The notes below the pieces were generated by a model, which did no database searches, was not told where the DNA came from, and worked only from the letters and a program-made list of their open reading frames with translations. 64,000 nt of DNA, taken from the NCBI GenBank assembly GCA_015063805.1, contig SVTK01000015.1, positions 12,188 through 76,187 of the forward strand, written 5' to 3'. Each line of letters opens with the position of its first letter. The stretch's first letter is position 1. The position numbers and the translations under genes were made by a program. This stretch comes from Oscillospiraceae bacterium. Its GTDB lineage: Bacteria > Bacillota > Clostridia > Oscillospirales > CAG-272. Shown in pieces: positions 42,459-60,273 of this stretch.

Positions 42459-44228
42459 TCAGTGCGGTATTTTTACATCAATGTAAACTGCACAATGATC
42501 GCTCGCCTTCAGCGCATTTTCATCTGTGATAATTCTGTGGACATAGGATATAATTCCCTCGCTGATGAAGATGCGGTCGATACTTTCCTTTGATACCGGC
42601 ATTTTTCCAACTTCATGGTTTGTTCCTATCCCCTCCATACTACTAACGGTTGATACGATCTCAGGATTAAGCAAACCACCCTTTACGGCTTCTGCATATC
42701 CCTTTGCATGACGATAGAAATTGTAGTCACCGGTACTGAAAGAAGGAAGATTTCCGTATTTTGTACGCAATTCCGCAATGATTTCCAACATTTCGCGAAC
42801 GTTATCTGCCCGCCATTCGGCACCTTCAACCTCATTGGTCCCGGGAATATTGTAACTTGCAGAAAGCATTGCACCGTGCAGATTTGTGACAATAAAATCC
42901 GGACTGCCATCCAACGGCGAAAGAACGGCCCAGGAAATTGATTTGGTATTGGTGCCTTTATAGCTTGAACGCAGGAATCTCACGCCGGCTTCCAACAGTT
43001 CAAACTTATCCTTGCGGTAAAGAATCGGGGTATAGTTGGCAATTTCTCCATTGTCGTGCCATCTTTGATTGTACGCATAAAATTCAAGCAAGGGCTTGAT
43101 GACATAGCTCTGAACGGTCTTGTTTGCTTCCTGCAAACCGATTACATCGGGAAGATACTGCTTGATCAGATCGATCATATAGGGGAAGCGTTCCTCATAG
43201 TTTTCCTGTGCGCCCAGCGTATTCAAGGTCATGACCCGAAAATCCGCCTCGGCATAAACGGGGTACTGATGCATTGTTGCATCAGTCAAGGCAATGTCAC
43301 CGACATCAACCTTCCCGGTTTTTCCTTTCAGATAATTCTCGGAAAATAAAAGCACAGCATTGCTGGTTGTCCATCCGCTCTTCCCTGCCAGTACCATTGT
43401 CCCCTCTTTGTGTTCAATTGCGTACATGGCAGGATCGGCCCCTTCCTGCGTGATTGCGGAGACGTTGGTTCCCTCACACGGTGAAATATCTGTATTGCCG
43501 GGAAGGCCAACCAAAATTTTCTTTTTCTGAGCCTGATCCATCGACACAACATTCAAATTCCAACCACATGCAAAAGCGATCTCCTGCTGCAAAAGGACAG
43601 CTGCATCCTTGAACTGACTCTCTGTGTAAGCAATGGAATATTCAGTAATCGGGTTTCCGCCAAGAGACAGCACATCAATCGGATACGCAACATTGTGCAA
43701 AATCATCGTGTCACGCGGAATGAGGATCTCCCCATTTGCGATGGACGACAGGAATGTACGAACGAACGTCGCACAGGCTTCCGCTGTCGCTTCGGGGCTT
43801 CCGCCGCAAATAACAATACGTTCATTTTCTACCGAGATGGAATATTCGCCGACTCGAAGTTTTGATGCTGCTTGAATAGATTCCTCACGATTCGTCACGC
43901 CCAGCAAAATTTCCTTTTTGGGACGAGAGGCAGGGTCTGTGCCGGGTCTCTCCCAGTCATCGGTCAGGTTAATATCAATTCCGGCCTTCAAAAATGCGCC
44001 ATAGAGATCGGAACCTGCATCAACCACGCATGGGTCTGCTGTTTCCGCTCGAACAATGGTATATTCACTCTTGCTCCCTGTTGCCAGAACAATCGGTTCC
44101 ATGGCAGGAACTGATTGTTCAAGAGGGGACGTTGTTTCGGATACATTTACATCTTCGCTTGTGTCCTGACAGCCAATTAACAGCAAGACAGACAAAAACA
44201 ATGGGAGAAAGACAAATTTCTTTTTCAT
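42459..44228 (-). CDS. lipoprotein: two GH20-domain-2-like modules + endonuclease/exonuclease/phosphatase (EEP) domain
   Basis: lipobox LIGC; EILLGVTNR / KILVG repeats; RVMTLN, PDVIGLQE, STGDYN, IDRIF, ASDHCAV. Confidence 0.85.
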   Translation of the reverse strand: MKKKFVFLPLFLSVLLLIGCQDTSEDVNVSETTSPLEQSVPAMEPIVLATGSKSEYTIVRAETADPCVVDAGSDLYGAFLKAGIDINLTDDWERPGTDPASRPKKEILLGVTNREESIQAASKLRVGEYSISVENERIVICGGSPEATAEACATFVRTFLSSIANGEILIPRDTMILHNVAYPIDVLSLGGNPITEYSIAYTESQFKDAAVLLQQEIAFACGWNLNVVSMDQAQKKKILVGLPGNTDISPCEGTNVSAITQEGADPAMYAIEHKEGTMVLAGKSGWTTSNAVLLFSENYLKGKTGKVDVGDIALTDATMHQYPVYAEADFRVMTLNTLGAQENYEERFPYMIDLIKQYLPDVIGLQEANKTVQSYVIKPLLEFYAYNQRWHDNGEIANYTPILYRKDKFELLEAGVRFLRSSYKGTNTKSISWAVLSPLDGSPDFIVTNLHGAMLSASYNIPGTNEVEGAEWRADNVREMLEIIAELRTKYGNLPSFSTGDYNFYRHAKGYAEAVKGGLLNPEIVSTVSSMEGIGTNHEVGKMPVSKESIDRIFISEGIISYVHRIITDENALKASDHCAVYIDVKIPH

Positions 44229-44261
44229 TTTATGATCCTCCTGTTTTAGAACTAATATCAT

Positions 44262-45392
44262 TTATGCCTGATGCGTTCCGTACAAACAATGTTTGATTCT
44301 GGGGAGTACATACTCCTCCTGATTATTGAGCATGTGCTGCGCATAGAAGAGAGAAAGGTGATTCTCCGGATCGATCAGAACATATGATCCGGCTGCACCG
44401 TGCCACCCAAATTCTCCGTACGGTCCGGGATTCCCTACGGAAGTGTCCATCATTGTTCTAACGCCAAACCCGTAGCCGTAACCATCATAGCAGTGCCATT
44501 GGGCAGCAAATTCGGCAAGCTGGTTTTCGTTGAGACAGTTGGTCCGCATCATATCGATCATATGACCGGAGAGGATCTGTTCCCCCGTCGCAGCTACACC
44601 GCCACAGGCCAATGCATCGGCAAAAAGAATATAATCCCGCACGGAAGAAATCAATCCTGCACCTCCGCTTTCATATTCACTGCCCAGCACGTACATATTG
44701 GTCAGCGGAATTTGCTCCGCCCTCCCGGTTTTATCATTAAAACGGTATTGTGTTGCCATTTTTTCGGCAATTGCGGAATTGAACCGGAATGTACTTTCTA
44801 TCATGCCGCAGGGAGTAAAAATATTCTTCTTGGCATACTCTTCAAAAGACATTCCCGAGATTACCTCAACAGCTCTTGCCAGCACATCGTGGCTCAAACC
44901 GTATCCAAACTGCTCTCCGGGGTGAAAATCCAGTGGCATTTTGGCAATTCCGCGAACTACATCACACAAAGGAGATCGGCCGCCTGTTCGTTCACCGACA
45001 TTCTGCAGATATGCTGAGGTAAGATTATAGGAAAGGCCCGATGTCATCGTGAAAAGATCGCGGAATGTGATTTCCCGGTTTGGCTCGACCGTATAGGCAC
45101 CGCAGCGGACTCGAATGTCACGGAATTCCGGAAGCACGCTCGAGATAGGATCACGCATTAAAAATTTTCCTTGAGAAAAAAGCTGCAGTGCTGCCGTACA
45201 GGTAATTACCTTTGAGCAGGAATACATGAAATATAATTCGTTGCCGTGAAGTTTCATTCCGCTTGTGTTATCCGGTGTACTGACCGTATAACGGTACAGT
45301 TCTTCATGATCACGGTACACAACAATATCTCCGCCGGGGATACCCCGTTGGGAAAGGCTGTTCATCAATTCTGTAAGATATTTGAAATCCAT
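44262..45392 (-). CDS. cytoplasmic serine hydrolase, beta-lactamase/class C esterase family
   Basis: MYSCSK (SxxK), DLFTMTSGL, PGEQFGYG, SGGAGL, FGWHGAAGS; no signal peptide. Confidence 0.9.
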   Translation of the reverse strand: MDFKYLTELMNSLSQRGIPGGDIVVYRDHEELYRYTVSTPDNTSGMKLHGNELYFMYSCSKVITCTAALQLFSQGKFLMRDPISSVLPEFRDIRVRCGAYTVEPNREITFRDLFTMTSGLSYNLTSAYLQNVGERTGGRSPLCDVVRGIAKMPLDFHPGEQFGYGLSHDVLARAVEVISGMSFEEYAKKNIFTPCGMIESTFRFNSAIAEKMATQYRFNDKTGRAEQIPLTNMYVLGSEYESGGAGLISSVRDYILFADALACGGVAATGEQILSGHMIDMMRTNCLNENQLAEFAAQWHCYDGYGYGFGVRTMMDTSVGNPGPYGEFGWHGAAGSYVLIDPENHLSLFYAQHMLNNQEEYVLPRIKHCLYGTHQA

Positions 45393-45510: not shown

Positions 45511-45678
45511 ATTATACATGATGCAATTTCGCTTGTCAAGGCAAAAAGCAAAAATAATGAAAAATTTCTGTAATTACATTATCCGTCTTTCTTTGAAATA
45601 ATTCCAAAAACCCTGTTGACATTCATATTTTTTTGTGATAAACTAAAAACAAGTTGGAGGAGATCCAATGTAATTACA
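45511..45678. promoter_or_regulatory. divergent promoters with two TGTAATTACA palindromes
   Basis: - TTGACA-17-TATAAT (45539-45511); + TTGACA at 45616; TGTAATTACA at 45569-45578 and 45669-45678. Confidence 0.65.
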
Positions 45679-45685
45679 CAAAGGA

Positions 45686-46669
45686 GTGATTGTTTTGTCC
45701 ACCATGCCCACCCGAGAAAAGGCGCTCGGAATGTACCGAAAAATGTATGAAATCCGTCAGTACGAAGAAACGGTAAAGTATCTCTTTTTCGAAGGAATCA
45801 TGCCGGGTACGATTCATCAAAGTGCCGGTGAAGAGGCTTCTGCTGTCGGTATCATTTATGACCTGAGAAAAGAGGATATCGTGTATTCCACTCACCGTCC
45901 CGCCGGTCATGATCTTGCGAAGGGAATCTCTCTCAGATCCATGATGTGCGAAATGTTTGGCAAAGCGGACGGCTGCTGTAAGGGCAAGGGCGGTGCGATG
46001 CATACCGGAGACATGTCGGTTGGTGTTCCTCCTGCAAATGCAATTGTGGGTGGCAACATCCCGATTGCAGCAGGGACCGCACTCGCGTTCAAAATGCAAA
46101 AAAAAGACAATATCGCAGTTTCTTTTATGGGTGATGGAGCAACAAACGAAGGATCGTTCCATGAAGGACTTAATTTCGCGGCAACGTGGAAACTTCCCGT
46201 GGTTTATGTCTGCGAGAATAATCTTTATTCCGCAACCACCTCCATTCATCTGACAACCCTTCTTGAAAATCCTGCGGCAGGACGCGCATCGGCTTACGGT
46301 TGTCCCGGCGTAGTCGTCGACGGAAACGATGTTCTCGCAGTCAACGAGGCAATGGAAGAGGCAATCCGTCGCGCTCGTTCCGGCGAAGGCCCTACGATTC
46401 TTGAACTCAAGACTTACCGCAAATATGGTCACTCGAGAAATGATGCCTGCGGATACCGCCCCAAGGATGAGGAAAAAGAATGGCTCGAGGACAGAGATCC
46501 CATCAAGACCTTCCGAGCAAGACTGCTTGCGGAAGGCGTAGCCTCTGAGGAAGAGCTCGCACAAATTGAAGAGTGTGTCGATACCGAGATTGATGAAGCC
46601 GTAGAATATGCAAAGTCCTCCCCGATGCCAACGCTCGCGTCTGCACTCGAGGACATCTACGCAGACTGA
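45686..46669 (+). CDS. TPP-dependent dehydrogenase E1 alpha (AcoA/PdhA family)
   Basis: STHR..GH, GKGGAMH, GDGATNEG...ENN TPP motif, YRKYGHS. Confidence 0.93.
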   Translation: MIVLSTMPTREKALGMYRKMYEIRQYEETVKYLFFEGIMPGTIHQSAGEEASAVGIIYDLRKEDIVYSTHRPAGHDLAKGISLRSMMCEMFGKADGCCKGKGGAMHTGDMSVGVPPANAIVGGNIPIAAGTALAFKMQKKDNIAVSFMGDGATNEGSFHEGLNFAATWKLPVVYVCENNLYSATTSIHLTTLLENPAAGRASAYGCPGVVVDGNDVLAVNEAMEEAIRRARSGEGPTILELKTYRKYGHSRNDACGYRPKDEEKEWLEDRDPIKTFRARLLAEGVASEEELAQIEECVDTEIDEAVEYAKSSPMPTLASALEDIYAD

Positions 46670-46688
46670 TAAAGGAGGAGTTTTAGTT

Positions 46689-47732
46689 ATGGCAATCATG
46701 TCAATTGCAGAAGCGCTGAAAGCAGCCATCGCAGAAGAAATGCGCAGAGATCCCAGCGTTTATGTCCTGGGAGAAGATGAAGATATTCCCGGAGGCATGG
46801 GAGGAGCATTTACCGTAACCAAGGGAATTGGTGATGAATTCGGTAGACTTGAGAACATTAACGGTGAGATCAAAGAAGGCCGTTGCATCAACACGCCCAT
46901 TTCCGAAATTATGATCGCAGGCGTTTGTGTCGGGTCTGCAATGTACGGAATGCGGCCTGTAGCTGACCTACAGTATTGTGATTTCCTTTTTTGCATGATG
47001 GATCAGCTGGTCAATCAGGCAGCTAAAATGCGATATATGTCCGGTGGAGCGCTTAGTGTTCCCATGGTAATGCGCTGTCCTTCCGGTGCAACCAACCGTG
47101 GTGCTCAGCACGCTCAAAGCCCTGAAACATATTTTGCTCATGTCCCGGGATTGAAGGTAATCTGTCCTTCTACCGCGTATGATGCCAAGGGAATGATGAA
47201 GCAGGCAATTCGAGACAACAATCCCGTTATTGTCTTCGAGCATAAACTGCTGTACGGCAGCAAGAGAAAGGAAGCCGGTGCACTCAATTCGTCCAGTGAG
47301 GTTCCAAGTGACGATTATACCATTCCCTTCGGGAAAGCAGCTGTCCGCCGTGAAGGCAAGGATATCACCATAGTTGCTAATCTGCTGATGAGCTATCGCG
47401 CCCAGGAAGCGGCTGCCGAGTTGGAAAAAGAGGGGATCTCGTGCGAGATTATTGACCCGCGTTCGCTTCTCCCGTTTGACTATGAAACCGTTGTGGAATC
47501 GGTCAGAAAAACAGGCAAGCTGATGATTGTGCATGAGGACACTTATAACTGTGGCTGGGGTGCGCAGGTAGCTTCCTATTTTGCGGAACATGAAATTTTC
47601 CTGCTGGATGCACCGATCGTTCGCGTTGCAGCGCTGGATACGCCTGTTCCCTTCTCCCCTGTGTTGGAGAATTATGTGATCCCTTCCAAAGATCGCATCG
47701 TAGAAGAAGCACGAAAGCTTGCAAAGCTTTGA
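46689..47732 (+). CDS. TPP-dependent dehydrogenase E1 beta (AcoB/PdhB family)
   Basis: NTPISE, MRPVAD, DQLVNQAAKMRYMSGG, GAQHAQS, VPGLKV, LDAPIVRV. Confidence 0.93.
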   Translation: MAIMSIAEALKAAIAEEMRRDPSVYVLGEDEDIPGGMGGAFTVTKGIGDEFGRLENINGEIKEGRCINTPISEIMIAGVCVGSAMYGMRPVADLQYCDFLFCMMDQLVNQAAKMRYMSGGALSVPMVMRCPSGATNRGAQHAQSPETYFAHVPGLKVICPSTAYDAKGMMKQAIRDNNPVIVFEHKLLYGSKRKEAGALNSSSEVPSDDYTIPFGKAAVRREGKDITIVANLLMSYRAQEAAAELEKEGISCEIIDPRSLLPFDYETVVESVRKTGKLMIVHEDTYNCGWGAQVASYFAEHEIFLLDAPIVRVAALDTPVPFSPVLENYVIPSKDRIVEEARKLAKL

Positions 47733-47747
47733 TTTGGAGGAAGAACT

Positions 47748-48896
47748 ATGTTGAAAACCGTAGTTATGCCTGCCGCAGGACAGACAACCGATGTCGCAAC
47801 AGTTACCGAACTCAAGGTTGCTGTCGGTGATACAGTACGCAAAGGAGATGTACTCCTTGAAGTAGAGACCGATAAAGCGGTACTGCCAATCGAAAGCTTT
47901 GCACGCGGCGTTGTCGTGGAAATATTCGTCAATGAATCGGACACCATTGACGCAGGTTCGCCTCTGCTTTCCATCGGAGACGAAAATGACCTGAAAGCGG
48001 CTCAAGAAAAGCAATCACCCTCTCCCGCCGCAATCCTCCGGACAAATGAAACAACAGAACCCGAAGAAGACGACTTTACCCCCATTCTTCCTCCCGAAAC
48101 AATACCCCAAGCACCCATTTCCACACGTTCGGCGCGTGTAAAAGCCATGCCCTCTGCCAAACAGGCGGCAGCCCAACTGGGAATCTCATTGGAGGAGCTC
48201 ACGCCCGCCAACGGATTGTTCCTCAAAGTTTCCGATGTTAAACGGGCTGCGGAAGAAAAGCAATGCGAGGTTTCTGCCCCGGCAGAAATCAATGTTCCGC
48301 TGGGAAGAATGAGAACATCTCTTGCCCGTCGTTTAGATGCAAGCGCGAATATTCCCGCATTTACTGTGGGGATCTGCGCGGATGCGTCGGCATATCACAC
48401 ATTAGCAGAAGCCAATGCAGACATTACCCCCGCACATTACGTGATGCTTGCACTTTCCCATTTGGCCCTGCGATATCCGATTCTGCGCACGCGCAATGAT
48501 GACATGAAACTGTCCGAATCCGATCTGCCCTGTATCGGCATGGCTGTATACGGTGAAAACGGAACTGTGGCATCGGTACTGGAAGATACAGCATTGTATA
48601 GCATTTCTGCGATTGCCAAGCGTTGCGGCGAAAACCGAGCAGCCGTCCTTCGCGGAGACTTTTCTTCCGTTCGTCCCGCATCTGTTGTGGTGCACGATAT
48701 GACCCAGTATGCTGTAAATATGTTCACCGCACCGGTCATTGCACCTTCTGTCGCTGCATTTGGCATTACTTATGCCAATCATCAAATCGCCGTTCACGGA
48801 AGCTTTGATATGCGTGTGGTAGAAGGTCATATCGGCGCATCGATCATGGCTGACCTGGAAAAGCTGCTCTCCACCCCTGTACTGATGCTGATGTAA
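47748..48896 (+). CDS. E2-like lipoyl protein with degenerate acyltransferase domain
   Basis: lipoyl motif EVETDKA; E3-binding KAMPSAKQAAAQLGISL..DV; C-terminal SFDMRVVEG instead of SFDHRxxDG. Confidence 0.85.
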   Translation: MLKTVVMPAAGQTTDVATVTELKVAVGDTVRKGDVLLEVETDKAVLPIESFARGVVVEIFVNESDTIDAGSPLLSIGDENDLKAAQEKQSPSPAAILRTNETTEPEEDDFTPILPPETIPQAPISTRSARVKAMPSAKQAAAQLGISLEELTPANGLFLKVSDVKRAAEEKQCEVSAPAEINVPLGRMRTSLARRLDASANIPAFTVGICADASAYHTLAEANADITPAHYVMLALSHLALRYPILRTRNDDMKLSESDLPCIGMAVYGENGTVASVLEDTALYSISAIAKRCGENRAAVLRGDFSSVRPASVVVHDMTQYAVNMFTAPVIAPSVAAFGITYANHQIAVHGSFDMRVVEGHIGASIMADLEKLLSTPVLMLM

Positions 48897-48898
48897 GC

Positions 48899-50257
48899 AT
48901 GGAGAACACCACAGAAATGAATATGAAATATGATTTGCTTGTGATTGGCGGCGGCCCGGGCGGGTATTCCGCCGCCGCTGCCGCGGCCAAAGCGGGGCTT
49001 TCCGTTTGTCTGTTTGAAAAAGATCGCATTGGCGGCACCTGTTTGCATCAAGGGTGCATTCCTACGAAATATTTGCTTGATCGGGCAGCTGCACTGGAGA
49101 AAATCCGTACCATGACAAAAGCCGGTCTTCTGCGCAATGCGGGAGAGTTCTCATTCCGCGCAGTGATGCAAGAAAAGCAAGTCGTGATCGATCGACTCTG
49201 TACGGGCCTCGAGACCATGCTCCAATCAAACAAAGTAAAAATCGTGAGGGGAGAAGCGCGATTCCGTGATAATAAAACCTTGATTTGCAATGGCGAGACA
49301 TACACCGCTGACAACATGATCATTGCCGCTGGCTCCTCGCCGATCAAACTTGGGTTTCGAGGGAGTGAGTTCTGCCTTGACAGCACAGAGGCACTGTCTC
49401 TGACCAAGGTGCCTCGTCGAATGTGTATTATTGGCGGTGGTGTAATCGGCCTGGAGCTTGGTTCGGCTTATATGGCCTACGGCTCATCCGTTCATATTGT
49501 AGAGCTTCAGGATCGCTTGCTGGCAAATGAACTTCCTGAGGCCGCTGATTATCTTGTGCGCAAGCTGTCTGCGCGTGGAATGAATTTGCACACGTCAAGT
49601 ACCGTAAAGGCTGTAGAGAAGGTTGGCAATGAATTTATCGTCCACACGAGTGCCGGCAAAATTGCAGCAGACGTTGTAGTATCCGCCATTGGCAGAAGAG
49701 CGAATTCCGGCGTGCTGGGAATTGAAAATACTGACATTCAAAGCGACAGCAGAGGCTGCATCGCCGTAAATGCACAGATGCAGACAACCGTTGACAGCAT
49801 CTATGCCATTGGCGATATCGTCGGCGGATATATGCTTGCACATGCGGCATATGCTGAAGCCGATGTTGCCGTGGCAAACATCGCCGGCTCTGTCGGGAAA
49901 AGCGATCAGCATATTATGCCGAGATGTATCTATACCATTCCACCATTTGCTGCAGTTGGCCTTACCCGTACCGGAGCCGAGGCAAAGGGATACTCTGTCA
50001 CCGTGGGCCGTGCAGATTATCGCGCCAACGGTATGGCAGCCGCTGAGGGTGAGGACGGCTGTGTATTCGCCATATTGGATCAAAAAAGCCGCAAGTGTCT
50101 TGGCTTCTCCTGTATTGGCGCAGGTGCACCGGAAATGATTAATGCAGCCTCCATTGCATTGGAGCGCGAGTACACCACAGACCACTGGCATCGCCTGATC
50201 GTCGCTCACCCCTCCCTTTCCGAATCACTTCGTGAAGCTGTCTTGGCAGCAAAATAA
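48899..50257 (+). CDS. lpdA: dihydrolipoyl dehydrogenase E3
   Basis: GGGPGG, GGTCLHQGCIPTK, GGGVIGLE, AIGD..MLAHAA, HPSLSE. Confidence 0.93.
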   Translation: MENTTEMNMKYDLLVIGGGPGGYSAAAAAAKAGLSVCLFEKDRIGGTCLHQGCIPTKYLLDRAAALEKIRTMTKAGLLRNAGEFSFRAVMQEKQVVIDRLCTGLETMLQSNKVKIVRGEARFRDNKTLICNGETYTADNMIIAAGSSPIKLGFRGSEFCLDSTEALSLTKVPRRMCIIGGGVIGLELGSAYMAYGSSVHIVELQDRLLANELPEAADYLVRKLSARGMNLHTSSTVKAVEKVGNEFIVHTSAGKIAADVVVSAIGRRANSGVLGIENTDIQSDSRGCIAVNAQMQTTVDSIYAIGDIVGGYMLAHAAYAEADVAVANIAGSVGKSDQHIMPRCIYTIPPFAAVGLTRTGAEAKGYSVTVGRADYRANGMAAAEGEDGCVFAILDQKSRKCLGFSCIGAGAPEMINAASIALEREYTTDHWHRLIVAHPSLSESLREAVLAAK

Positions 50258-50378: not shown

Positions 50379-51368
50379 ATGAAAAAAATTTTAGCAATTC
50401 TATTTGCGGTATCTATGATTGTTTCCAGCATGGTTTTCTCTTCTTTAGCAGCTGAACCGGTAAACGTGATGCTGGACGCGGATAATGTAATATCCAGATA
50501 CACGCTCAACCTTTGGGAAGAAAACGGCGGTTGGGGAAGATACAACGCTGCCGCTTTGTACGGATTCGCCTATATCAATGACGGCGAATACAGCGCAGGT
50601 CCCTGGGATACTGAAGGAAAAGACGCCAATAAAGCCGTTTCACAAAAATATGTTGCCGGCTACAGACGCAAGAGTGCTGCGAATGTTGACCTTAACGGTC
50701 AGGCAATGCCGGAGGGCGAGACTGGCTATGTGTTTATCACAGCAGGTATCAACTTTGATGTTCCTGTCAATGTTGATGTACTGAAACTGTATGTTGGTTC
50801 TGCTCCAGGATGTAATTTTCCCAGCTTTGATGTTGTCGTGGGATACCAAGCAAATACGGGCGATACAAAGCTGACCTGGAAAATCATCGGAACGGTAAAC
50901 GACTTGTACACCGAAGGTACAAAGTATGACGATTATACGCGTTGCTTCGAGTTTGCATTTGACCCTACTGAAGTATGTGCATTTCAGATCGCATGCAAAA
51001 CTGCGATCGATAATGGCGGAGTAGACGGTACCGACGGTTCAACGAAGGCATTCGCAATTTCCGAAATTGAGATGTTCAAAACCGGTACGTATTCTTCTGC
51101 ACCTGCAACCACTGCAGCACCCGCAACCACTGCAGCACCTGCAACCACTGCAGCACCCGCAACCACTGCAGCACCCGCAACCACTGCAGCACCCGCAACC
51201 ACTGCAGCACCTGCAACCACTGCAACGCCTGAAACCACTGCAGCACCTGCAACCACTGCAGCGCCCACGACCTCACCCAGTACAGCTGACGGGACGGTTG
51301 TTGGTTTTGTCGTCGCAGCGGTGGCGCTGGCTGCCGTAATCGTCCTGCGCCGCCGTGTTCACGGTTAA
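50379..51368 (+). CDS. cell-wall-anchored protein: discoidin/F5/8-like beta-sandwich + Ala/Pro/Thr linker + sorting signal
   Basis: signal peptide; ..AISEIEMF domain end; (APATTA)n; SPSTAD + TM + RRR. Confidence 0.8.
   Translation: MKKILAILFAVSMIVSSMVFSSLAAEPVNVMLDADNVISRYTLNLWEENGGWGRYNAAALYGFAYINDGEYSAGPWDTEGKDANKAVSQKYVAGYRRKSAANVDLNGQAMPEGETGYVFITAGINFDVPVNVDVLKLYVGSAPGCNFPSFDVVVGYQANTGDTKLTWKIIGTVNDLYTEGTKYDDYTRCFEFAFDPTEVCAFQIACKTAIDNGGVDGTDGSTKAFAISEIEMFKTGTYSSAPATTAAPATTAAPATTAAPATTAAPATTAAPATTAAPATTATPETTAAPATTAAPTTSPSTADGTVVGFVVAAVALAAVIVLRRRVHG
51099..51260 (+). repeat. in-frame 18-bp tandem repeat x9
   Basis: GCACC(T/C)GCAACCACTGCA units encoding APATTA (one TPETTA variant). Confidence 0.95.
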
Positions 51369-51450: not shown

Positions 51451-52179
51451 ATGACAACAGTATATATTATCAGACACGGTGAGACCGATTTCAACCGCCT
51501 GTACCGTTTTATTGGAAGCACCGATCACCCGCTCAATGAACGCGGCATCGCACAGGCCGAAACACTGCGAGAACCGATGTCAAAATTTGCATTGGACCGT
51601 ATCTATTCAAGCCCGCTGAAGCGAACCATGATGACTGCCGAACGGGTCAGAAACGGACGCGACCTTGAGATTATCGAAGCCCCCGGCCTCAGAGAAATCC
51701 ACTGCGGTGCCTGGGAAGGTCTCAATCGCGAAGAAATTGAGGTGAAATGGCCCGGTGAGATCAATCTCTGGGAAAAGCACCCCCATTTGCTGCACATGGA
51801 AGGTGGAGAAACCTTTGCCGAAGTACAAGACAGGGCAATCAACGCATTTTGTGAGATCATTGCGCGGGAGCGTGGGAACTGCATTGCCATCACCTCACAT
51901 ATGCTCACGATTCAATTGATCATGGGGAAGCTGCTCAATGTACCCATTTGCGATGTATGGGAAATGGTGAGACTGGAAAACACCTCAATCACCACGATGA
52001 CAATCGAAGACAACGGTGACTTTGCGGTTGTACGCTGGGCTGACGATTCCCATCTTCCTCAATCTCTTAAAAATGCGAATGTGAAAATTGCCGGTATTCA
52101 TAACACCAGTTTTGAAGCAAAATACGATATCTCCGATGTGGAAGGCAGTCATCATTTTTCCGGTTTTGCTGTTGTTTAA
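51451..52179 (+). CDS. histidine phosphatase family protein
   Basis: IIRHGET, YSSPLKR, LREIHCGAWEG, GGET, ITSH, ENTSIT. Confidence 0.92.
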   Translation: MTTVYIIRHGETDFNRLYRFIGSTDHPLNERGIAQAETLREPMSKFALDRIYSSPLKRTMMTAERVRNGRDLEIIEAPGLREIHCGAWEGLNREEIEVKWPGEINLWEKHPHLLHMEGGETFAEVQDRAINAFCEIIARERGNCIAITSHMLTIQLIMGKLLNVPICDVWEMVRLENTSITTMTIEDNGDFAVVRWADDSHLPQSLKNANVKIAGIHNTSFEAKYDISDVEGSHHFSGFAVV

Positions 52180-52290
52180 CTGTTACCTCCAACGGGGGAA
52201 AATGAAGTGCGAAAAGCAGAAGTGCAAATTCCTGTTGTGTGTAAATACAATCATGGATATACAAAGTAAACAGAAAGAAGGTCATCTATC

Positions 52291-53052
52291 ATGAATAAAA
52301 ATCTTTGTGAGGGTAAGGTAGCCGTTGTTACAGGTGCAGGCCAAGGAATTGGAGAGGCTATCGCACGTCGTCTGGCAGAATTCGGTGCCAAGACAATCAT
52401 CACCGATATTAATGCCGAGAAAGGACAGGCCACCGCGGATGCACTGTGCGCAGATGGCCTGTCGGCTGCCTTCAAATATTTTGATGTCACCGATTTTTCC
52501 CATATCGAAGAAACTATCCGAGAAATTAAAAACATATTCGGCCGCATTGATATTTGGGTGAATAATGCCGGTATCACGGGAACAGCAAGAGTGGATGAAA
52601 TTACGCTTGAAGATTGGGATCGGATGCAGACCATTGACATCAAAAGTGTTTTCTTCTGCACACAGGCTGTATTCAAAATTATGAGAGAACAAAAATACGG
52701 GAAACTGGTACATATCTCCTCCATGGCCGGTGAACGCGGAGGCCGTTCCTCATCCTGTGCTTACTCTTCTGCCAAGGCCGGTGTGCTGAATATTTCTAAA
52801 TGCTTTGCATTGGCCGGCGGAGAATTCAATATTACCTCCAACTGTGTTTGCCCGGGAAGAACACTCACGCCTATGGCACAGGGACTCTCCTGGCTGACGG
52901 ATCCGAAGGACGATCCCCGGAAAACCATTCCTCTCGGCCGCTTTGGTACGCCTGAGGATATTGCCAATGCTGTGCTCTTCCTTGCCAGCGACCTGTCCTC
53001 CTATATCACCGGAGATATCATCGACGTCAACGGTGGCCTTTATATGAAATAA
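52291..53052 (+). CDS. SDR oxidoreductase (likely NAD-dependent)
   Basis: TGAGQGIG, Asp in TDIN, NNAG, YSSAK, CPG. Confidence 0.93.
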   Translation: MNKNLCEGKVAVVTGAGQGIGEAIARRLAEFGAKTIITDINAEKGQATADALCADGLSAAFKYFDVTDFSHIEETIREIKNIFGRIDIWVNNAGITGTARVDEITLEDWDRMQTIDIKSVFFCTQAVFKIMREQKYGKLVHISSMAGERGGRSSSCAYSSAKAGVLNISKCFALAGGEFNITSNCVCPGRTLTPMAQGLSWLTDPKDDPRKTIPLGRFGTPEDIANAVLFLASDLSSYITGDIIDVNGGLYMK

Positions 53053-53146: not shown

Positions 53147-54175
53147 TCATTTTTTGTCTGCCCGATGCAGCGAAATTACGCTGTTATGCTCGGTTAAGGT
53201 GGGCGGGAAAACCATACGCTTGGCCGCCTGTTCCGGGAAAGCAATGCGATCAAGCAGCAGCGAGGCGGCAGTTTTTCCCATCAGAATAGGATCCTGTTCA
53301 AACGTCGTGAAATCCATTGGACACGGCATATAGTCCCGGCTGTAATCATCATTGCAAATGACGCTGACATCGTTCGGCACTTGAATTCCCTCGCGCAGCA
53401 GAACATCAACCATACCCGCAGCCATCAATCCTGTGGTGGAAAAAACAGCAGAAAAACGCTTGTTGGCAGGCATTTGACAAATGATTTCTCCAAAATCCCG
53501 TCCACAACGATAACGACGGTCGCCGTAGAACACGTAATGATCTTCAATCGGCAGATTATGTGCCCGCATGGCGTCAAAATATCCCTGTGTACGATTTTGG
53601 CAAGTTACGGAGGAGGAAGGTCCTGCAATGTGCGCAATTCTGCGATGGCCGCGCTCTATCAAATATTCGGTGGCAAGGTAGCCACACCGATAATTATCCA
53701 CTGTGACCACATCCATATCTACGCTGCGCAAATATCGATTTACAAAAATGATGGGCGTTTTCATACGCGTAACGTGGCGAATTAAATTGCGGTTTTCAAT
53801 GGCATTGAGCATAAAAATTCCCGAGAATCCGTTTTTGGCTGCATATTGCAGGATGTCACATTCCACAGCAGAGTCATAATCGCTGAGAGAAATCATGCAG
53901 CGCAGCCCTTCTTCATACAGACGTGACCGAATACCGTCAATAAAACCAAGCGTGATGGGGTTTTGCAGCTGCCCCGCGATAATCAAAACCGTTTCACCAT
54001 TGCGGAACTCAACGGAACTGCGGCGGGTTCGCTTTTGATAATTTTCTTTTTCCAGTGCTGAAAGAACTTTCTCACGGGTGTGTGCAGATACATTGTCCTC
54101 ACCGTTCAGCACGCGGGAAATCGTTGCTGTGGACACACCTATTTCTTTTGCAATGTCTGCTAATGTCTTCCCCAT
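53147..54175 (-). CDS. LacI-family regulator
   Basis: TLADIAKEIGVSTATISRVLNG HTH; YLIERGHRRIAHI, VPNDVSVICNDD. Confidence 0.93.
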   Translation of the reverse strand: MGKTLADIAKEIGVSTATISRVLNGEDNVSAHTREKVLSALEKENYQKRTRRSSVEFRNGETVLIIAGQLQNPITLGFIDGIRSRLYEEGLRCMISLSDYDSAVECDILQYAAKNGFSGIFMLNAIENRNLIRHVTRMKTPIIFVNRYLRSVDMDVVTVDNYRCGYLATEYLIERGHRRIAHIAGPSSSVTCQNRTQGYFDAMRAHNLPIEDHYVFYGDRRYRCGRDFGEIICQMPANKRFSAVFSTTGLMAAGMVDVLLREGIQVPNDVSVICNDDYSRDYMPCPMDFTTFEQDPILMGKTAASLLLDRIAFPEQAAKRMVFPPTLTEHNSVISLHRADKK

Positions 54176-54306
54176 TATCTCAGCCCCTTTTTCTTTATCC
54201 ATCGTAGTACTATTGTACATGATTTTCCTTAAAAAATCAACCATATTTTAAAAACAAACCCCAAGATCATCCCCAAAAACAGAACTGTCAAACGTGAGAG
54301 GTATCT

Positions 54307-55632: not shown

Positions 55633-55749
55633 TCCCAGATAAATGAAAATAAAATTTTCATCTATATCGAAATTTATCGAAAAGAAGTAATGACTCATAA
55701 TATCATTGTTAACAGATCCAATCAAATAACAAAGAAAGGAACAAGAAAC

Positions 55750-58083
55750 ATGAAAATCATTTCCCTGTTAATGAAAATCATTTCCCTGCTACTCATAATC
55801 AGTTGTTTTTGCTCATTGCTAATTATTTCCTCAACCGCTACAACTTCCCCATACGATGACGATTATTACAAAGATCGTACCAACGTAATGCGCGGTGCCG
55901 CTCTAGCAGGAAAGGCCAATGTCGGATTTTTCGGAACTACCTATGTAACAGGTTCCGCAAATTCGACCGATGGTCAAAGAACTCACGATTGCAACAGTAA
56001 CTCTACCTTTCTTAACACCAGAACCTCCGTCTCAGCAGACACCATTTCCAAGGGTGGCAGCACACTTCAGTCCAGTTTGTTTGATGTCAACGGAAAAAAA
56101 GGAAGTGAAGCCACAAATCCGAAGTATCTTATGATCTTCTGCTTTAAACTTACTAAACCCGCTACGGTTGACACCGCACGTGTCTTTTTAGACGAAATCA
56201 ACAATGGATCTCTTTGTGCGAGAACGCTTGACAGTCTAGACATTGCCCTTAGTGCAACCGGCGAAGATGGTTCTTGGAAGATTGTTCATTCCGTTGACAA
56301 AATCTACTGCGGAAACAACTACCATATTTATGAAGACAAGAGTGGTAACAAAACTTCCTACATTGAAGCCTCTTTTGATCCCACTGAAACACTCTACATC
56401 CGTCTCTGCATTCCCGAGCCCACATGTCTGCATGGCCAAACCGAAATCAAAGGCGATTCAATCCGATACTGCCGCTTTACCGAGATAGAGCTTTGGTCTG
56501 TCCCTAAGACTAATGAAGATAACAACACCACAAAGCCCACCGATACTTCCATTAAATCCACCGTTCTTTTTCCCCTGCTGATGAAACACAGACAGTACGA
56601 GACCGAGACTTCCACCACCATGTTTGGGCTGCGTGTTAAGAACCTCCTCAGCTCCACTAACAGCATTACCTTTGAAAAGAACGGCACCAAAGCTACTGTT
56701 CCCGGCGAGACTTTGAAGGAACTAAAGTTGGGCGGTTTCCAAAAGTTGGTTGTTGCGATTACCACCCCAAATGCTACCACAGTTAAGATCACTGCCACCG
56801 CTGCAGGCAAAGTCGTTGAAAGTCTCGCAGGTACACTTGTTACCATGCCTTGGGATTCTTCCAAGGGCATCGAAGTAAAGGCAGTTGACGCACAAGGAAA
56901 CACTACCAACGCTACCTATGACGCAACTTCGGAGACCGTTTCCTTTATTGCTAACACCATGGGCGTCTACAGCATTGTAGAGGGGACTGCCATTGATTCG
57001 CCTGTTACTGATCCAGTGTCCAAAGATAATTTCAACTGGAGCAACACCAGTGTGGTGTTTATCGGCGACAGTATCACAGCTGGTACCGGAACCACGAAAA
57101 CATATCACAGTTATCTGAGCAATATGAACATATTCAAATCGGTCAGGTCAATGGGTGTTGGAGGCTCTTGCATTAGTCAGCGATCGGATTACGGCTCGAA
57201 GAATTCTCCTTTGGTCGGACGTTATTCTTCTATCCCTGCTGCCGATTTAATTGTCGTGTTCATGGGGACCAATGATTACGGTCACGAAACACCTCTCGGC
57301 ACCATATCTGACACATCGGACGTCTCATTCTACGGTGCTTTGGATACGGTAATCACCGGTATCCAGAAAGAACACCCTGACAGTCAGCTTGTTTTTGTAA
57401 CGCCATTACATCGTTATGGATTTGGAACAAGTAAAATCACGGGAACAAAGTTCACCTATGATAATCTTCCCAATGGAAACGGTCATAAGCTCGAGGATTA
57501 TGTAAACGCAATCAAGGTAGTTTGTGATAAATATGCCGTGCCGGTAATTGATCTGTTCAACCTGTGTCCGATCACCCCGGAAAACCCCGAAGACAAAAAA
57601 CAATATTTTCCTGATGGCCTTCATCCGAATGAGGCAGGGCATGAAATCATTGCAAAATTAATCTTTGAACAACTTTCTTTGGTCCCAAATCCGAATCCCG
57701 TAGATCCTGATGATACAGACAGTACCGCCGAACAGGAGCCGGAAATCAGTCGTGTCCTGATGCAATACGGAAACAAATTTGTAAAAAGCTATGCAAACGA
57801 CCGCACCAGAGCAACCTCGGAAATCAATATTTATCTCGAAGAAGGTCAGACAGTAACTATTCTTTCGACCCAGAATCTCCAATGGGCCCTTGCCAAAACA
57901 GATAGTGTCAATTCAACCTCCTACTCGCGGTACTATCCTAAGAATGGGTGGAATTCTGTTGCTTCCTATACGGTTGCGGAAAGTGGATATTACGGTTTGG
58001 TTTTGATGAAATCTGACAAAAGCGAGTTTGATTTTGAAAACTTTGATCCCGCTGAAATGTCAAGCTACATTCTCATTCGTTGA
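55750..58083 (+). CDS. secreted multidomain protein: discoidin-like domain + SGNH esterase
   Basis: signal peptide; ..RFTEIELW; FIGDSIT, GVGGS, MGTNDY, DGLHPN. Confidence 0.85.
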   Translation: MKIISLLMKIISLLLIISCFCSLLIISSTATTSPYDDDYYKDRTNVMRGAALAGKANVGFFGTTYVTGSANSTDGQRTHDCNSNSTFLNTRTSVSADTISKGGSTLQSSLFDVNGKKGSEATNPKYLMIFCFKLTKPATVDTARVFLDEINNGSLCARTLDSLDIALSATGEDGSWKIVHSVDKIYCGNNYHIYEDKSGNKTSYIEASFDPTETLYIRLCIPEPTCLHGQTEIKGDSIRYCRFTEIELWSVPKTNEDNNTTKPTDTSIKSTVLFPLLMKHRQYETETSTTMFGLRVKNLLSSTNSITFEKNGTKATVPGETLKELKLGGFQKLVVAITTPNATTVKITATAAGKVVESLAGTLVTMPWDSSKGIEVKAVDAQGNTTNATYDATSETVSFIANTMGVYSIVEGTAIDSPVTDPVSKDNFNWSNTSVVFIGDSITAGTGTTKTYHSYLSNMNIFKSVRSMGVGGSCISQRSDYGSKNSPLVGRYSSIPAADLIVVFMGTNDYGHETPLGTISDTSDVSFYGALDTVITGIQKEHPDSQLVFVTPLHRYGFGTSKITGTKFTYDNLPNGNGHKLEDYVNAIKVVCDKYAVPVIDLFNLCPITPENPEDKKQYFPDGLHPNEAGHEIIAKLIFEQLSLVPNPNPVDPDDTDSTAEQEPEISRVLMQYGNKFVKSYANDRTRATSEINIYLEEGQTVTILSTQNLQWALAKTDSVNSTSYSRYYPKNGWNSVASYTVAESGYYGLVLMKSDKSEFDFENFDPAEMSSYILIR

Positions 58084-58170
58084 AACACACCTCAGTTTGC
58101 ATATACCTTCCCTGTGACACAGACAGTATTCATACAACCACTTTTTATTACTCAAAAGGAAGATCAAACA

Positions 58171-60273
58171 ATGAAGACATCTTTTATATGCTGTATGCTA
58201 CTGTTTCTCATTGCATTCCCTAGTTTGGGCAGCTGCTCGTTCGAACAACCGCAAATATCTGAGCCAACTGCCGCTCCCCAAACCTCTATAGCACCAGAAA
58301 CAACTGTCCCCCTCCAAGAAATTTTGGCTCCCGAAACGACCGGTGAACCGGCGGTCACACAGTTTACCCCAAATCCCAATGCCTCGATCGTTTATAACGT
58401 TACAGAAAAAAAGCTGGTTCGTGCTTTGCTGGATTGGCAGCATGTCAAAACCACCACACAATCCGGCGAACCCGCCTTTTGGAATCTCTCGGTTGCACGA
58501 ACCATGCGAAACAACATGATCAACATATATCCACGTGCAAGAAATGAAAATCTCGAGACCATCAAAGGCGGATATCTTATACCGCAATATACCGATTTCC
58601 TCATGGAATATACTGCTCCGGCGCTTAAGGAATCACATGACATGGGCATGGAGGTTATCTCTTCACTTCCCATGATCCTGATAGAAAGGGAAACCTTTGA
58701 AGCTGCCGGTCTGAAAATTGAGGATTATGCTGCAATTTATCCAAATGGCAAAATTTATGACGGCGGGTGTCTGAATAATCCCAACTGGCGTAAGCTGATC
58801 TATGACTATACTATGCGCACCGCCCAAGCCGGATTCGACGGGATGTTCTGCGATGCGAACCCCTATTCCTACGGTCCCGGATTCAACTGCTGCTGTCAGT
58901 ACTGTGCGGATGCGTGGGCAAAATTCTCGCTCGAAAAACTAGGCCGCGAGGAAAAACTGCTCAAAACCGTCCCCACCAATCAGACTAGCGTCAGCCGCTG
59001 TTTTTATGATTTCCGTGCCCAAACATACCTCGATTTTTTGCTCCTGCTGCGAGATGATGCCCGTAAGATTAATCCTGATTTCTCCATGTGGCCCAATACA
59101 AATATGAACAATGGTATCGCTGCCTATTATTTGCTCGGAGGCAATGAGCATATGATCTCAGAATATGGCGATGTCAAAAATCTCGAGAGCGGCGAGGACA
59201 GCACACTATATATGTTCCGCCAATATGAAGCCATTTACGAACATCTCCCCATGCAATCGCAATACAACAATACCAAAACGCAAGGATATCCCTTCTATAA
59301 GCTTTACACCGCATATGCTGAGGCATTGGCTTCGGGCGGCTCAATGATGATGCCCGTTCTTTATGCTGCAAAAGATCTCTACCCCGTTCTGAACAACTAC
59401 AACAATATCATAGACGAAAACGAGGACGCTTTCACCAGCAGTACCTCGATTGCCGAAACTGCTGTCGTTTACTCCTGGCGCGACATCTATACCTATCACC
59501 ACAAGAGCTCCGGACAGGTTAAGTTTGCCCAAAACACCTCTCGTGTGGCCTCTTCCCTGCTAGCTGCAAATGGAATCCCCTTTGATTATATTCTACCCGA
59601 AAAAAACACATTGACTGTCAACGATCTCAAGCAGTACAAAACCATCATACTCCCTGAACTTCATTTGCTTGATCAAAAATTTCTCAACATGCTTGATGCC
59701 TATGTGTGCAACGGAGGACAACTACTCATTCTCGGCAAGACTTTCGCCACTAACTACACCTCGGAAAATGGCTATGACTACCCCGCCTACGATTTCGACG
59801 TCTTTGAATCGCTGACCGGTACCAAATTTTCCGACGCCAAGGATGGCACAGTGTATCCTTGCGGAGTTGGCAAAATCTTGGTATGCAAAAATTATGCCAC
59901 AGGAACCTCATCTGAGCGCACCATACGAGCAACCGCAGCCTTACGCAGCAGCTATGAAACACTCGATATGTTTGCGCCTGTCCGCGTAACCGAAGATATT
60001 ACCGGCAAGGTTGAAACCACTCTCCGAAGCGACGCAACAGGACAACACTGGTGGCTGCACCTGATCAACTACAACACCGGTGGAGAAATTGAGGAAAAAC
60101 CTTATCGTGTCACCATTACCATTCCTGAAGGTGAAACCGTGATTGATGTCATTCCATCCTGTGCATTTCGCGAAGTCAAAGAGATGGAGTTCAGTTGGGA
60201 CTTCAAAGACGGGCTCCTCACGGTCTCTGGAATTTTTGACATTCACACCATGCTCACCATCTGTAAGCAATAA
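58171..60273 (+). CDS. glycoside-hydrolase-like lipoprotein (TIM barrel + GH42-type trimerisation domain)
   Basis: lipobox LGSC; CLNNPNWR, GFDGMFCD, CCCQYC; YKTIILPE..YVCNGGQLL. Confidence 0.7.
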   Translation: MKTSFICCMLLFLIAFPSLGSCSFEQPQISEPTAAPQTSIAPETTVPLQEILAPETTGEPAVTQFTPNPNASIVYNVTEKKLVRALLDWQHVKTTTQSGEPAFWNLSVARTMRNNMINIYPRARNENLETIKGGYLIPQYTDFLMEYTAPALKESHDMGMEVISSLPMILIERETFEAAGLKIEDYAAIYPNGKIYDGGCLNNPNWRKLIYDYTMRTAQAGFDGMFCDANPYSYGPGFNCCCQYCADAWAKFSLEKLGREEKLLKTVPTNQTSVSRCFYDFRAQTYLDFLLLLRDDARKINPDFSMWPNTNMNNGIAAYYLLGGNEHMISEYGDVKNLESGEDSTLYMFRQYEAIYEHLPMQSQYNNTKTQGYPFYKLYTAYAEALASGGSMMMPVLYAAKDLYPVLNNYNNIIDENEDAFTSSTSIAETAVVYSWRDIYTYHHKSSGQVKFAQNTSRVASSLLAANGIPFDYILPEKNTLTVNDLKQYKTIILPELHLLDQKFLNMLDAYVCNGGQLLILGKTFATNYTSENGYDYPAYDFDVFESLTGTKFSDAKDGTVYPCGVGKILVCKNYATGTSSERTIRATAALRSSYETLDMFAPVRVTEDITGKVETTLRSDATGQHWWLHLINYNTGGEIEEKPYRVTITIPEGETVIDVIPSCAFREVKEMEFSWDFKDGLLTVSGIFDIHTMLTICKQ

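Follow-up and report, generated by a model that had tools for sequence, protein, structure and literature searches.

The window analysed here, a 64,000-nt stretch of the genome of an Oscillospiraceae bacterium (contig SVTK01000015.1), carries an accessory catabolic operon that includes a LacI-family regulator and a heterotetramer-type E1 alpha/E1 beta (E1ab), found in bacteria of animal-gut metagenomes. Its genes encode E1 alpha, E1 beta, E2 and E3 of a 2-oxoacid dehydrogenase-type complex, and a serine hydrolase with an SxxK motif is transcribed divergently from them. The E2 retains the catalytic-domain fold, the trimer and assembly motifs, the lipoyl lysine and a probable peripheral subunit-binding domain (PSBD); the canonical acyl-transfer residues are gone. 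Judged by comparison with its homologues, this E2 with its histidine-lacking (His-less) core is an old and selectively maintained lineage. An even case can be made, from sequence, for a joint mechanism in which E1 would load the lipoyl arm, the His-less core would act as a scaffold, the serine hydrolase would unload the arm and E3 would reoxidise it.

Genes were called from the list of open reading frames (ORFs), and families were assigned by Pfam and NCBIfam profile scans of the window proteins. The genome to which the window belongs (G000) is 2.10 Mb long and 89% complete. An initial annotation, made from the sequence alone, had described E1 alpha, E1 beta and E3 with their key motifs and a full-length, uninterrupted E2; the ORF list and the family scans bear this out. 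The E2 consists of a lipoyl domain (residues 1-80), a disordered linker containing a DDF motif, a putative PSBD (approximately residues 131-175) and a core (176-382). The lipoyl domain matches PF00364 with 69 bits, its K43 (codon 47874-47876) lying in an EVETDKA motif that is invariant in 25/25 aligned E2 homologues. The PSBD gives a weak match to PF02817 (E3_binding), 18.4 bits over 22 residues and under the cut-off of 23.7; a precomputed PF02817 match is present in many of the E2 homologues, and an AlphaFold2 (AF2) model predicts a confident helix-loop-helix at residues 135-173 (helices 135-144 and 161-173). The core scores 49 bits against PF00198 (cut-off 23), compared with 227 bits for a canonical E2 encoded on contig C14 of the same genome. 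The best curated equivalog, TIGR01349, gives 81 bits against a cut-off of 445, and the protein falls far under all NCBIfam E2 cut-offs. Public records name the His-less proteins plain "2-oxo acid dehydrogenase subunit E2".

The catalytic positions were located by two routes, phmmer comparison with the Protein Data Bank (PDB) and a joint alignment of 37 His-less with 40 canonical cores, and both agree with the initial annotation that the histidine of the DHRxxDG motif and the catalytic serine are absent. The phmmer alignment pairs GSFDMRVVEGHIGA (GSFDMRVVEG) of the E2 with ASFDHKVVDGAVGA (ASFDHKVVDG) of 6zlm, and PASVVVHD with GGTFTITN of the same structure. The histidine position is occupied by M355, whose ATG codon was confirmed at 48810-48812; the serine position is occupied by H316 (48693-48695) and the asparagine that follows by D317. 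On the canonical side of the joint alignment, the frequency of H opposite M355 is 1.00, that of S opposite H316 is 0.80 and that of N opposite D317 is 0.97.

The same alignment reveals that the differences extend well beyond these three residues. In the His-less cores the canonical G-L-V-V-P-V reads G-T-V-[ST]-[AS]-V (with T273 in 37/37), P..N is replaced by R247, S-N-L-G by [FYH]-D-A-[TVC], I-I-N-P-P by P-[VL]-x-x-P, I-L-A by A-[FY]-G and D-H-R-x-x-D by D-x-R-x-x-E. Further invariants particular to the lineage are N271, C293, D304, S306 and S365, and a 14-residue hairpin ahead of the D-x-R motif is deleted. Conserved throughout are D354, R356, the N-terminal helix with R189/R194/R195 and the C-terminal P-x-L-x-L. 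By this comparison the core is remodelled, not merely mutated. Structure prediction agrees that it still has the E2 catalytic fold: in the AF2 model, built on a 92-sequence alignment, the predicted local distance difference test score (pLDDT) exceeds 90 in the lipoyl domain, PSBD and core and falls below 50 in the linker (90-128), and Foldseek aligns the core model with solved E2 cores at template-modelling (TM) scores of 0.72-0.84, with a root mean square deviation (rmsd) of 2.4-4 Å and 14-23% identity.

A word-indexed search returned 1014 E2 homologues, of which the best 120 (45-96% identical) were examined at the catalytic positions. The histidine is absent from 120/120, being replaced by I (52), V (51), M (8), A (8) or L (1), and it is likewise absent from the 25/25 homologues aligned separately. 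At the serine position the residue is F in 62, Y in 47 and H in 7 (116 of the 120 fitted the pattern), followed by an invariant D. Rescue by the nearby histidine of the VEGH sequence, which the initial annotation had allowed for, is not supported, this position being unconserved across the 37 His-less cores (N 17, R 14, H 2, E 1; the remaining 3 not listed).

Ratios of nonsynonymous to synonymous substitution (dN/dS) were taken from the closer pairs, most pairs of the window with a relative being saturated (dS undefined). Within the E2, the least saturated pairs give 0.14-0.20 for the core and 0.02-0.09 for the lipoyl domain, the lipoyl arm being the best-conserved part of the protein. The values per gene, from which the histidine phosphatase and LacI rows of the L095-L096 pair were dropped as artefacts of mismatched fragments of high-scoring segment pairs, are 0.15-0.17 for E2, 0.08-0.19 for E3, 0.013-0.055 for E1 alpha, 0.015-0.040 for E1 beta and 0.02-0.08 for the short-chain dehydrogenase/reductase (SDR) encoded further downstream. 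The E2 is thus under constraint, yet evolves 4-10 times faster than E1.

These data bear on the possibility that the E2 gene has recently decayed or become a pseudogene, within an operon that is itself dying. Its weak PF00198 score, its rank as the fastest-evolving gene of the operon, and the state of the window copy, which is without a lipoate ligase gene (LplA) and has a foreign gene inserted after E3, could be read in that way. Against it, the frame is intact in every copy, the substitutions are common to all of the 120 homologues, dN/dS is well under 1 and the AF2 fold is confident. In addition, three RNA libraries from two studies contain short contigs with 95-100% identity to E1 alpha, E1 beta, E2, E3 and the hydrolase, one contig spanning the E1 beta-E2 junction; these are a weak hint of transcription of the operon, DNA carry-over being possible and depth and strand uninformative. 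Recent decay, which the initial annotation had named as a possibility that would count against its reading, is refuted by the His-less homologues (25/25 and 120/120) and by dN/dS, and a dying operon is extremely improbable as an explanation.

The core was compared exhaustively by phmmer with 1.84 billion representative sequences; 90 proteins were found at E <1e-3 and 6 at <1e-10. Among these proteins, four further His-less E2-like ones (P0123, P0125, P0126 and P0144) have C, A or Q at the histidine position. They carry F/H-D at the Ser-Asn position and are without the 14-residue deletion; P0125 is labelled Clostridia. A tree built from 61 cores places the 18 His-less ones (14 of the main family and these 4) together in one clade, split from the 43 canonical ones with 100/100 support and a branch length of 1.25, and the His-less cores may on this topology have a single origin. 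Separately, weak PF00198-like matches of 21-23 bits, covering the C-terminal 80 profile positions, were seen in frames of 344-383 aa in G000 (C11:98030-98284, L003), G538 (C6) and G624 (C3); these frames may represent another protein resembling chloramphenicol acetyltransferase.

Across related operons, the slot occupied by E2 takes three forms. (The hit tables of L094 and L097 are identical to those of L006 and L010 and were counted once.) The first form, with a His-less core, is present in six genomes (G000, G321, G265, G463, G486 and G538) and in locus L007. The second, found in G670 (L099) and on contigs L008 and L009, is a chimera that joins a lipoyl domain, DDF linker and PSBD of the type proper to the operon to a canonical core (FDHRALDG, FTVTNLG); this core is 84% identical to that of the E2 on contig C14 of G000 and groups with it at 100/100 in the core tree. 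No E2 besides the chimera was found in G670. In the third form (G667 and G624), the gene after E1 beta encodes a fusion of 577-583 aa made of a lipoyl domain (PF00364), a PSBD (PF02817, 25.7 bits) and an SxxK hydrolase (PF00144, 201 bits). The operons with the fusion contain neither an E2 core nor an E3.

The linker sequence [ED]-D-D-F-x-P (D108-D109-F110, 48069-48077) is invariant in 120/120 His-less E2s, and the chimeras have it too. The linkers of the fusion proteins lack it, their "DDF" falling inside the hydrolase domain. The motif may serve in docking.

Clustering at 90% identity yields 17 protein clusters with the fusion architecture, which share 58-96% identity with the query; its presence on numerous contigs of several sources shows that the architecture is no artefact of assembly. 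A scan of metagenome contigs with the fusion alignment gave 46 loci, all of them distant lipoyl-domain matches (28-48% identity, at the N-terminus) with no fusion among them, and a search for longer fused forms of the His-less E2 gave just two unrelated multi-lipoyl E2s covering 20-21% of the query. A quick tree places the hydrolase domain of the fusion as sister to the free hydrolases of the operon (SH-like approximate likelihood ratio test 86; clades 99 and 98). Fused and free hydrolases share invariant motifs in 17/17 aligned sequences (S58-C-S-K61, Y122, H168-D169, GGAG and W330-H-G332), and the closest PDB matches of the window hydrolase are esterases and carboxylesterases (7pp3 with 165 bits, 4ivi, Est-Y29 and EstB 1ci8). 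As listed, the hydrolase ORF of the window extends to a TTG at 45551; tblastn matches from relatives start at its residue 53-55. In the manner of a Rosetta-stone link, the fusion supports an association of the SxxK enzyme with the lipoyl swinging arm, and it is understandable that this enzyme stands where an E2 core would be if its target is the acyl-lipoyl arm.

We envisage the following sequence of events. E1ab would reductively acylate the lipoyl group on K43 of the E2, the main part of the His-less core would be to present the arm and bind E1 and E3 as an oligomeric scaffold, the SxxK hydrolase would take the acyl group off S-acyl-dihydrolipoyl-lysine by way of a serine acyl-enzyme, and E3 would reoxidise the arm with NAD+. 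Of the mechanisms considered, this one is best supported, because of the fusion link and the loss of all canonical acyl-transfer residues. The serine acyl-enzyme could equally pass its acyl group to coenzyme A (CoA) or another acceptor, not solely to water. A stricter version, close to that of the initial annotation, is possible rather than probable: the system would carry out a CoA-independent oxidative cleavage dependent on lipoate, thiamine pyrophosphate (TPP) and NAD, in which the SxxK enzyme replaces the E2 chemistry (by hydrolysis or transfer to a non-CoA acceptor) and the E2 core is just a pseudoenzyme scaffold, dispensed with in some species.

The hydrolase lies beside the operon in 6/6 His-less loci with available flank. 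The suggestion of the initial annotation that it is a candidate off-loading partner is supported by the lipoyl-PSBD-hydrolase fusion of G667 and G624. One point speaks against the further idea that the hydrolase strictly compensates for the lost histidine: it is also kept in the operon of G670 beside a canonical DHR core. Hence, the hydrolase is not tied to the loss of the histidine alone.

Several points weigh against the scaffold-and-hydrolase mechanism. Besides the arrangement in G670, the canonical core in operons L008, L009 and L099 means that CoA-dependent transfer is compatible with the pathway. Moreover, many canonical invariants of the core have been exchanged for other invariant polar residues (R247, N271, T273, C293, D304, S306, D317, E359 and S365); this pattern has the look of a pocket remodelled for its own function, not of a bare scaffold. 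G667 and G624, in turn, each hold a canonical E2-E3 cluster elsewhere that could in principle act in trans. Finally, in the E2 of Escherichia coli 2-oxoglutarate dehydrogenase (E2o), PMC5986005 gives a 54-fold loss for each of H375A and D374A, 60% residual activity for H375W and 13% for H375G; such tolerance indicates that the histidine is not strictly essential there.

Part of this evidence favours a different explanation, which we consider possible if on the doubtful side, namely that the His-less core is still an acyltransferase, using CoA or another small acceptor such as phosphate in its remodelled pocket, and that the hydrolase has a separate job, such as cleaving open a substrate that is an ester, amide or lactam, or removing stalled acyl-lipoyl groups as a proofreading enzyme. 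Conservation of D354, R356 and E359 of D-x-R-x-x-[DE], of the R189/R194/R195 helix and of the new polar invariants, together with a dN/dS of about 0.15, would be expected of such an enzyme. The 2-60% activity that E2o histidine variants retain (PMC5986005), the natural chimeras with a canonical core in the same operon and the hydrolase retained in G670 point the same way. However, the active-site His, Ser and Asn are all replaced, the serine position often by Phe, which offers no hydrogen bonding, and the deleted hairpin is near the motif. Furthermore, G667 and G624 dispense with the core and have the hydrolase fused to the lipoyl arm, an arrangement hard to explain if the substrate of the hydrolase were free.

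The canonical E2 on contig C14 suggests yet another arrangement, in which the His-less E2 would be a non-catalytic paralogue comparable to the E3-binding protein (E3BP, or protein X), co-assembling with the canonical E2 or handing acyl-lipoyl groups to it. Eukaryotic E3BP is a catalytically inactive E2 paralogue, as described in PMC466950. In G000 the C14 cluster (L005:7273-13552) comprises the canonical E2 (452 aa, FDHRALDG), an E3, a fused E1ab of 828 aa and the sole LplA of the genome; G667 and G624 hold a canonical cluster too. Yet, only G000 among the six His-less genomes has another PF00198 match over the cut-off. The five other carriers, 91-98% complete, have none, and an E3BP-like role beside a catalytic E2 is thereby excluded for those five. 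The operon has its own E1ab, its own E3 and, in relatives, its own LplA; in G486 and G538, which were checked for this, the single E3 is that of the operon. We judge an E3BP-like role improbable.

The operon is sparsely distributed. A His-less E2 was found in 2/301 sampled genomes of the order, an operon defined by its E1 beta in 9/401 genomes of the family, and the operon in 0/6 other species of the genus, some of whose genomes are incomplete. Carriers are labelled Clostridia, Eubacteriales or Anaerotruncus. As determined by tblastn with the window proteins, the conserved layout has the hydrolase and LplA on one strand and E1 alpha, E1 beta, E2, E3, histidine phosphatase and SDR on the other, followed beyond the SDR by the LacI-family gene and a PF01663 phosphodiesterase. 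Identities in related operons are 77-90% for E1 alpha, 84-93% for E1 beta, 46-60% for E3 and 79-86% for the SDR. The statement of the initial annotation that the cluster has no lipoate ligase is true of the window. In relatives, LplA lies precisely between the hydrolase and E1 alpha, co-directional with the hydrolase (Pfam match in L010, L006 and L099; tblastn match in L008, L009, L099, L100 and L101), and it is from this position that the gene has gone in G000.

Features of the window are collected in Table 1. In the control region shared by hydrolase and E1 alpha, the palindrome TGTAATTACA is present as a pair; these are the two exact copies in the whole window, and the pair recurs upstream of E1 alpha in 10/10 related loci comprising all three forms of the E2 slot. 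The pair probably serves the conserved LacI-family regulator as its operator. A copy with 1 mismatch occurs at 52240-52249, upstream of the SDR gene, and L095 and L096 have a third copy of TGTAATTACA between the LacI and phosphodiesterase genes. At the place of the promoter facing E1 alpha, relatives carry TTGAC[AT]-N17-TATA[AC]T. Metagenomes of animal gut or faeces from 15 studies contain the window stretch itself.

Table 1. Operon genes and control elements of the window, with the basis of each assignment
Feature	Position	Strand	Basis
SxxK serine hydrolase, PF00144, family-VIII-esterase-like, cytoplasmic	44262..45392	-	376 aa from ATG at 45392; Pfam Beta-lactamase 167 bits
Sigma-70-like promoter facing hydrolase, TTGACA-17-TATAAT	45511..45539	-	12/12 consensus positions; consensus match alone
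Palindrome TGTAATTACA, candidate operator 1, between the divergent promoters	45569..45578	.	exact copy
Sigma-70-like promoter facing E1 alpha, TTGACA-17-TAAACT, TG extension	45616..45644	+	10/12 consensus positions
Palindrome TGTAATTACA, candidate operator 2, just upstream of E1 alpha ribosome-binding site	45669..45678	.	exact copy
E1 alpha, TPP-binding subunit	45686..46669	+	PF00676 (E1_dh) 291 bits
E1 beta	46686..47732	+	PF02779 (Transket_pyr) 143 bits; PF02780 (Transketolase_C) 124 bits
E2 with His-less core, 382 aa, uninterrupted	47748..48896	+	profile scans, alignment, AF2
E3, dihydrolipoyl dehydrogenase	48899..50257	+	TIGR01350 440 bits, over cut-off 408.8
Secreted protein, PATTAA repeats (~10), C-terminal hydrophobic anchor	50379..51368	+	no Pfam/NCBIfam match
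Histidine phosphatase, PhoE/PspA-like	51451..52179	+	PF00300 185 bits; PDB 1h2e 116 bits; directly after E3 in relatives
SDR oxidoreductase	52291..53052	+	PF13561 214 bits; 79-86% identical in relatives
LacI-family regulator	53147..54244	-	PF00356 and PF13377; 57-72% identical in relatives
Alkaline-phosphatase-superfamily phosphodiesterase/pyrophosphatase, PF01663	54307..55632	+	148 bits; 64-74% identical in relatives

The E1 alpha translation contains the GDG...NN TPP motif and scores 332 bits against TIGR03182, under the cut-off of 394; E1 beta scores 332 bits against NF006667, over the cut-off of 321. E3 has the redox disulfide CLHQGC (CxxxxC) and the C-terminal HPSLSE. E1 beta contains an insertion of about 16 residues relative to the Transket_pyr profile, around residues 40-75 (187 residues span 171 profile positions), whose sequence differs between the window and G667 while the remainder of E1 beta is 84-93% identical. 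The repeat-protein gene that separates E3 from the histidine phosphatase is an insertion specific to G000, absent from this place in all related loci. Likewise particular to G000 are the flanks of the operon (42459-44261 and 55690-60273), with a 600-aa Exo_endo_phos lipoprotein, a 797-aa protein with a GDSL-lipase domain and a 719-aa protein with a Glyco_hydro_42M domain. Hints of the substrate were sought by NCBIfam and PDB searches of the SDR, phosphatase, phosphodiesterase, E1 alpha and E1 beta, which returned generic matches throughout; the PDB matches of the phosphodiesterase are weak ones to nucleotide pyrophosphatases/phosphodiesterases. Taken together, the phosphatase, SDR, phosphodiesterase and LacI-family regulator hint that the precursor of the E1 substrate may be a phosphorylated sugar-like or polyol-like compound.

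In the usual view, acyl transfer to CoA by E2 is a fixed step of all lipoate-dependent dehydrogenase complexes; here a whole bacterial lineage appears to have rebuilt it. The three natural genotypes of one operon (with a His-less core, with a canonical core, or with a fused hydrolase instead of a core) constitute a ready-made comparative experiment. If the hydrolase unloads the lipoyl arm, the system would show how pseudoenzyme scaffolds persist, add a new class of partner for lipoyl domains and give gut anaerobes a route to NADH that does not make acyl-CoA. If the reaction is moreover CoA-independent, it would define a new type of 2-oxoacid/acyloin dehydrogenase complex with the first family VIII esterase directed at a lipoyl arm, and the fusion would be a minimal lipoyl-PSBD-hydrolase "E2". 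Metabolic models that score these genes as pyruvate dehydrogenase (PDH) or acetoin dehydrogenase may be wrong. Neither a bacterial His-less E2 lineage nor a lipoyl-PF00144 (beta-lactamase-fold) fusion turned up in a search of the full-text literature, whose coverage leaves out most subscription journals.

Compared with the canonical E2s of PDH, acetoin and branched-chain 2-oxoacid dehydrogenase complexes with heterotetrameric E1ab (such as Geobacillus stearothermophilus E2p, 1b5s/3duf), the window E2 has the same domain order (lipoyl domain, probable PSBD, core), the same core fold (TM 0.76, rmsd 3.7 Å to 1b5s), the C-terminal P-x-L-x-L and the operon order E1 alpha-E1 beta-E2-E3. It differs in that His, Ser, Asn, GL-VPV and TxSNLG are replaced and the 14-residue hairpin is deleted. 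With the E3BP of eukaryotic PDH it shares a lipoyl domain, a probable binding domain and a core of the kind termed "pseudocatalytic" in PMC466950. E3BP, by contrast, operates inside a core that it builds together with catalytic E2, and 5/6 carriers of the His-less protein have no other E2. The hydrolase resembles the family VIII carboxylesterases (EstB 1ci8, Est-Y29, 7pp3) in its SxxK nucleophile, Tyr and WxG, with W/H-x-G in place of KTG.

Acyltransferases with a beta-lactamase fold, such as LovD, are further related enzymes. We know of no family VIII carboxylesterase or LovD-type acyltransferase that partners a lipoyl domain or is fused to one. A close parallel in principle is proteobacterial AcoC, whose lipoyl domain carries an alpha/beta-hydrolase-fold domain instead of an E2 core. 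NF011457, which we take to be the model for AcoC, matches the window E2 and the fusion in the lipoyl part alone, and three candidate proteobacterial AcoC ORFs that we scanned (L020, L038 and L067) have a lipoyl domain (with a PSBD in L020) and no hydrolase domain. In AcoC as generally understood, a serine-hydrolase fold takes over the handling of the acyl group on the lipoyl arm, and the fusion of G667 and G624 has an analogous architecture; its hydrolase fold, however, is the SxxK type of PF00144 and not the alpha/beta-hydrolase, and in the window an E2-like core has been retained, with the hydrolase encoded as a protein of its own.

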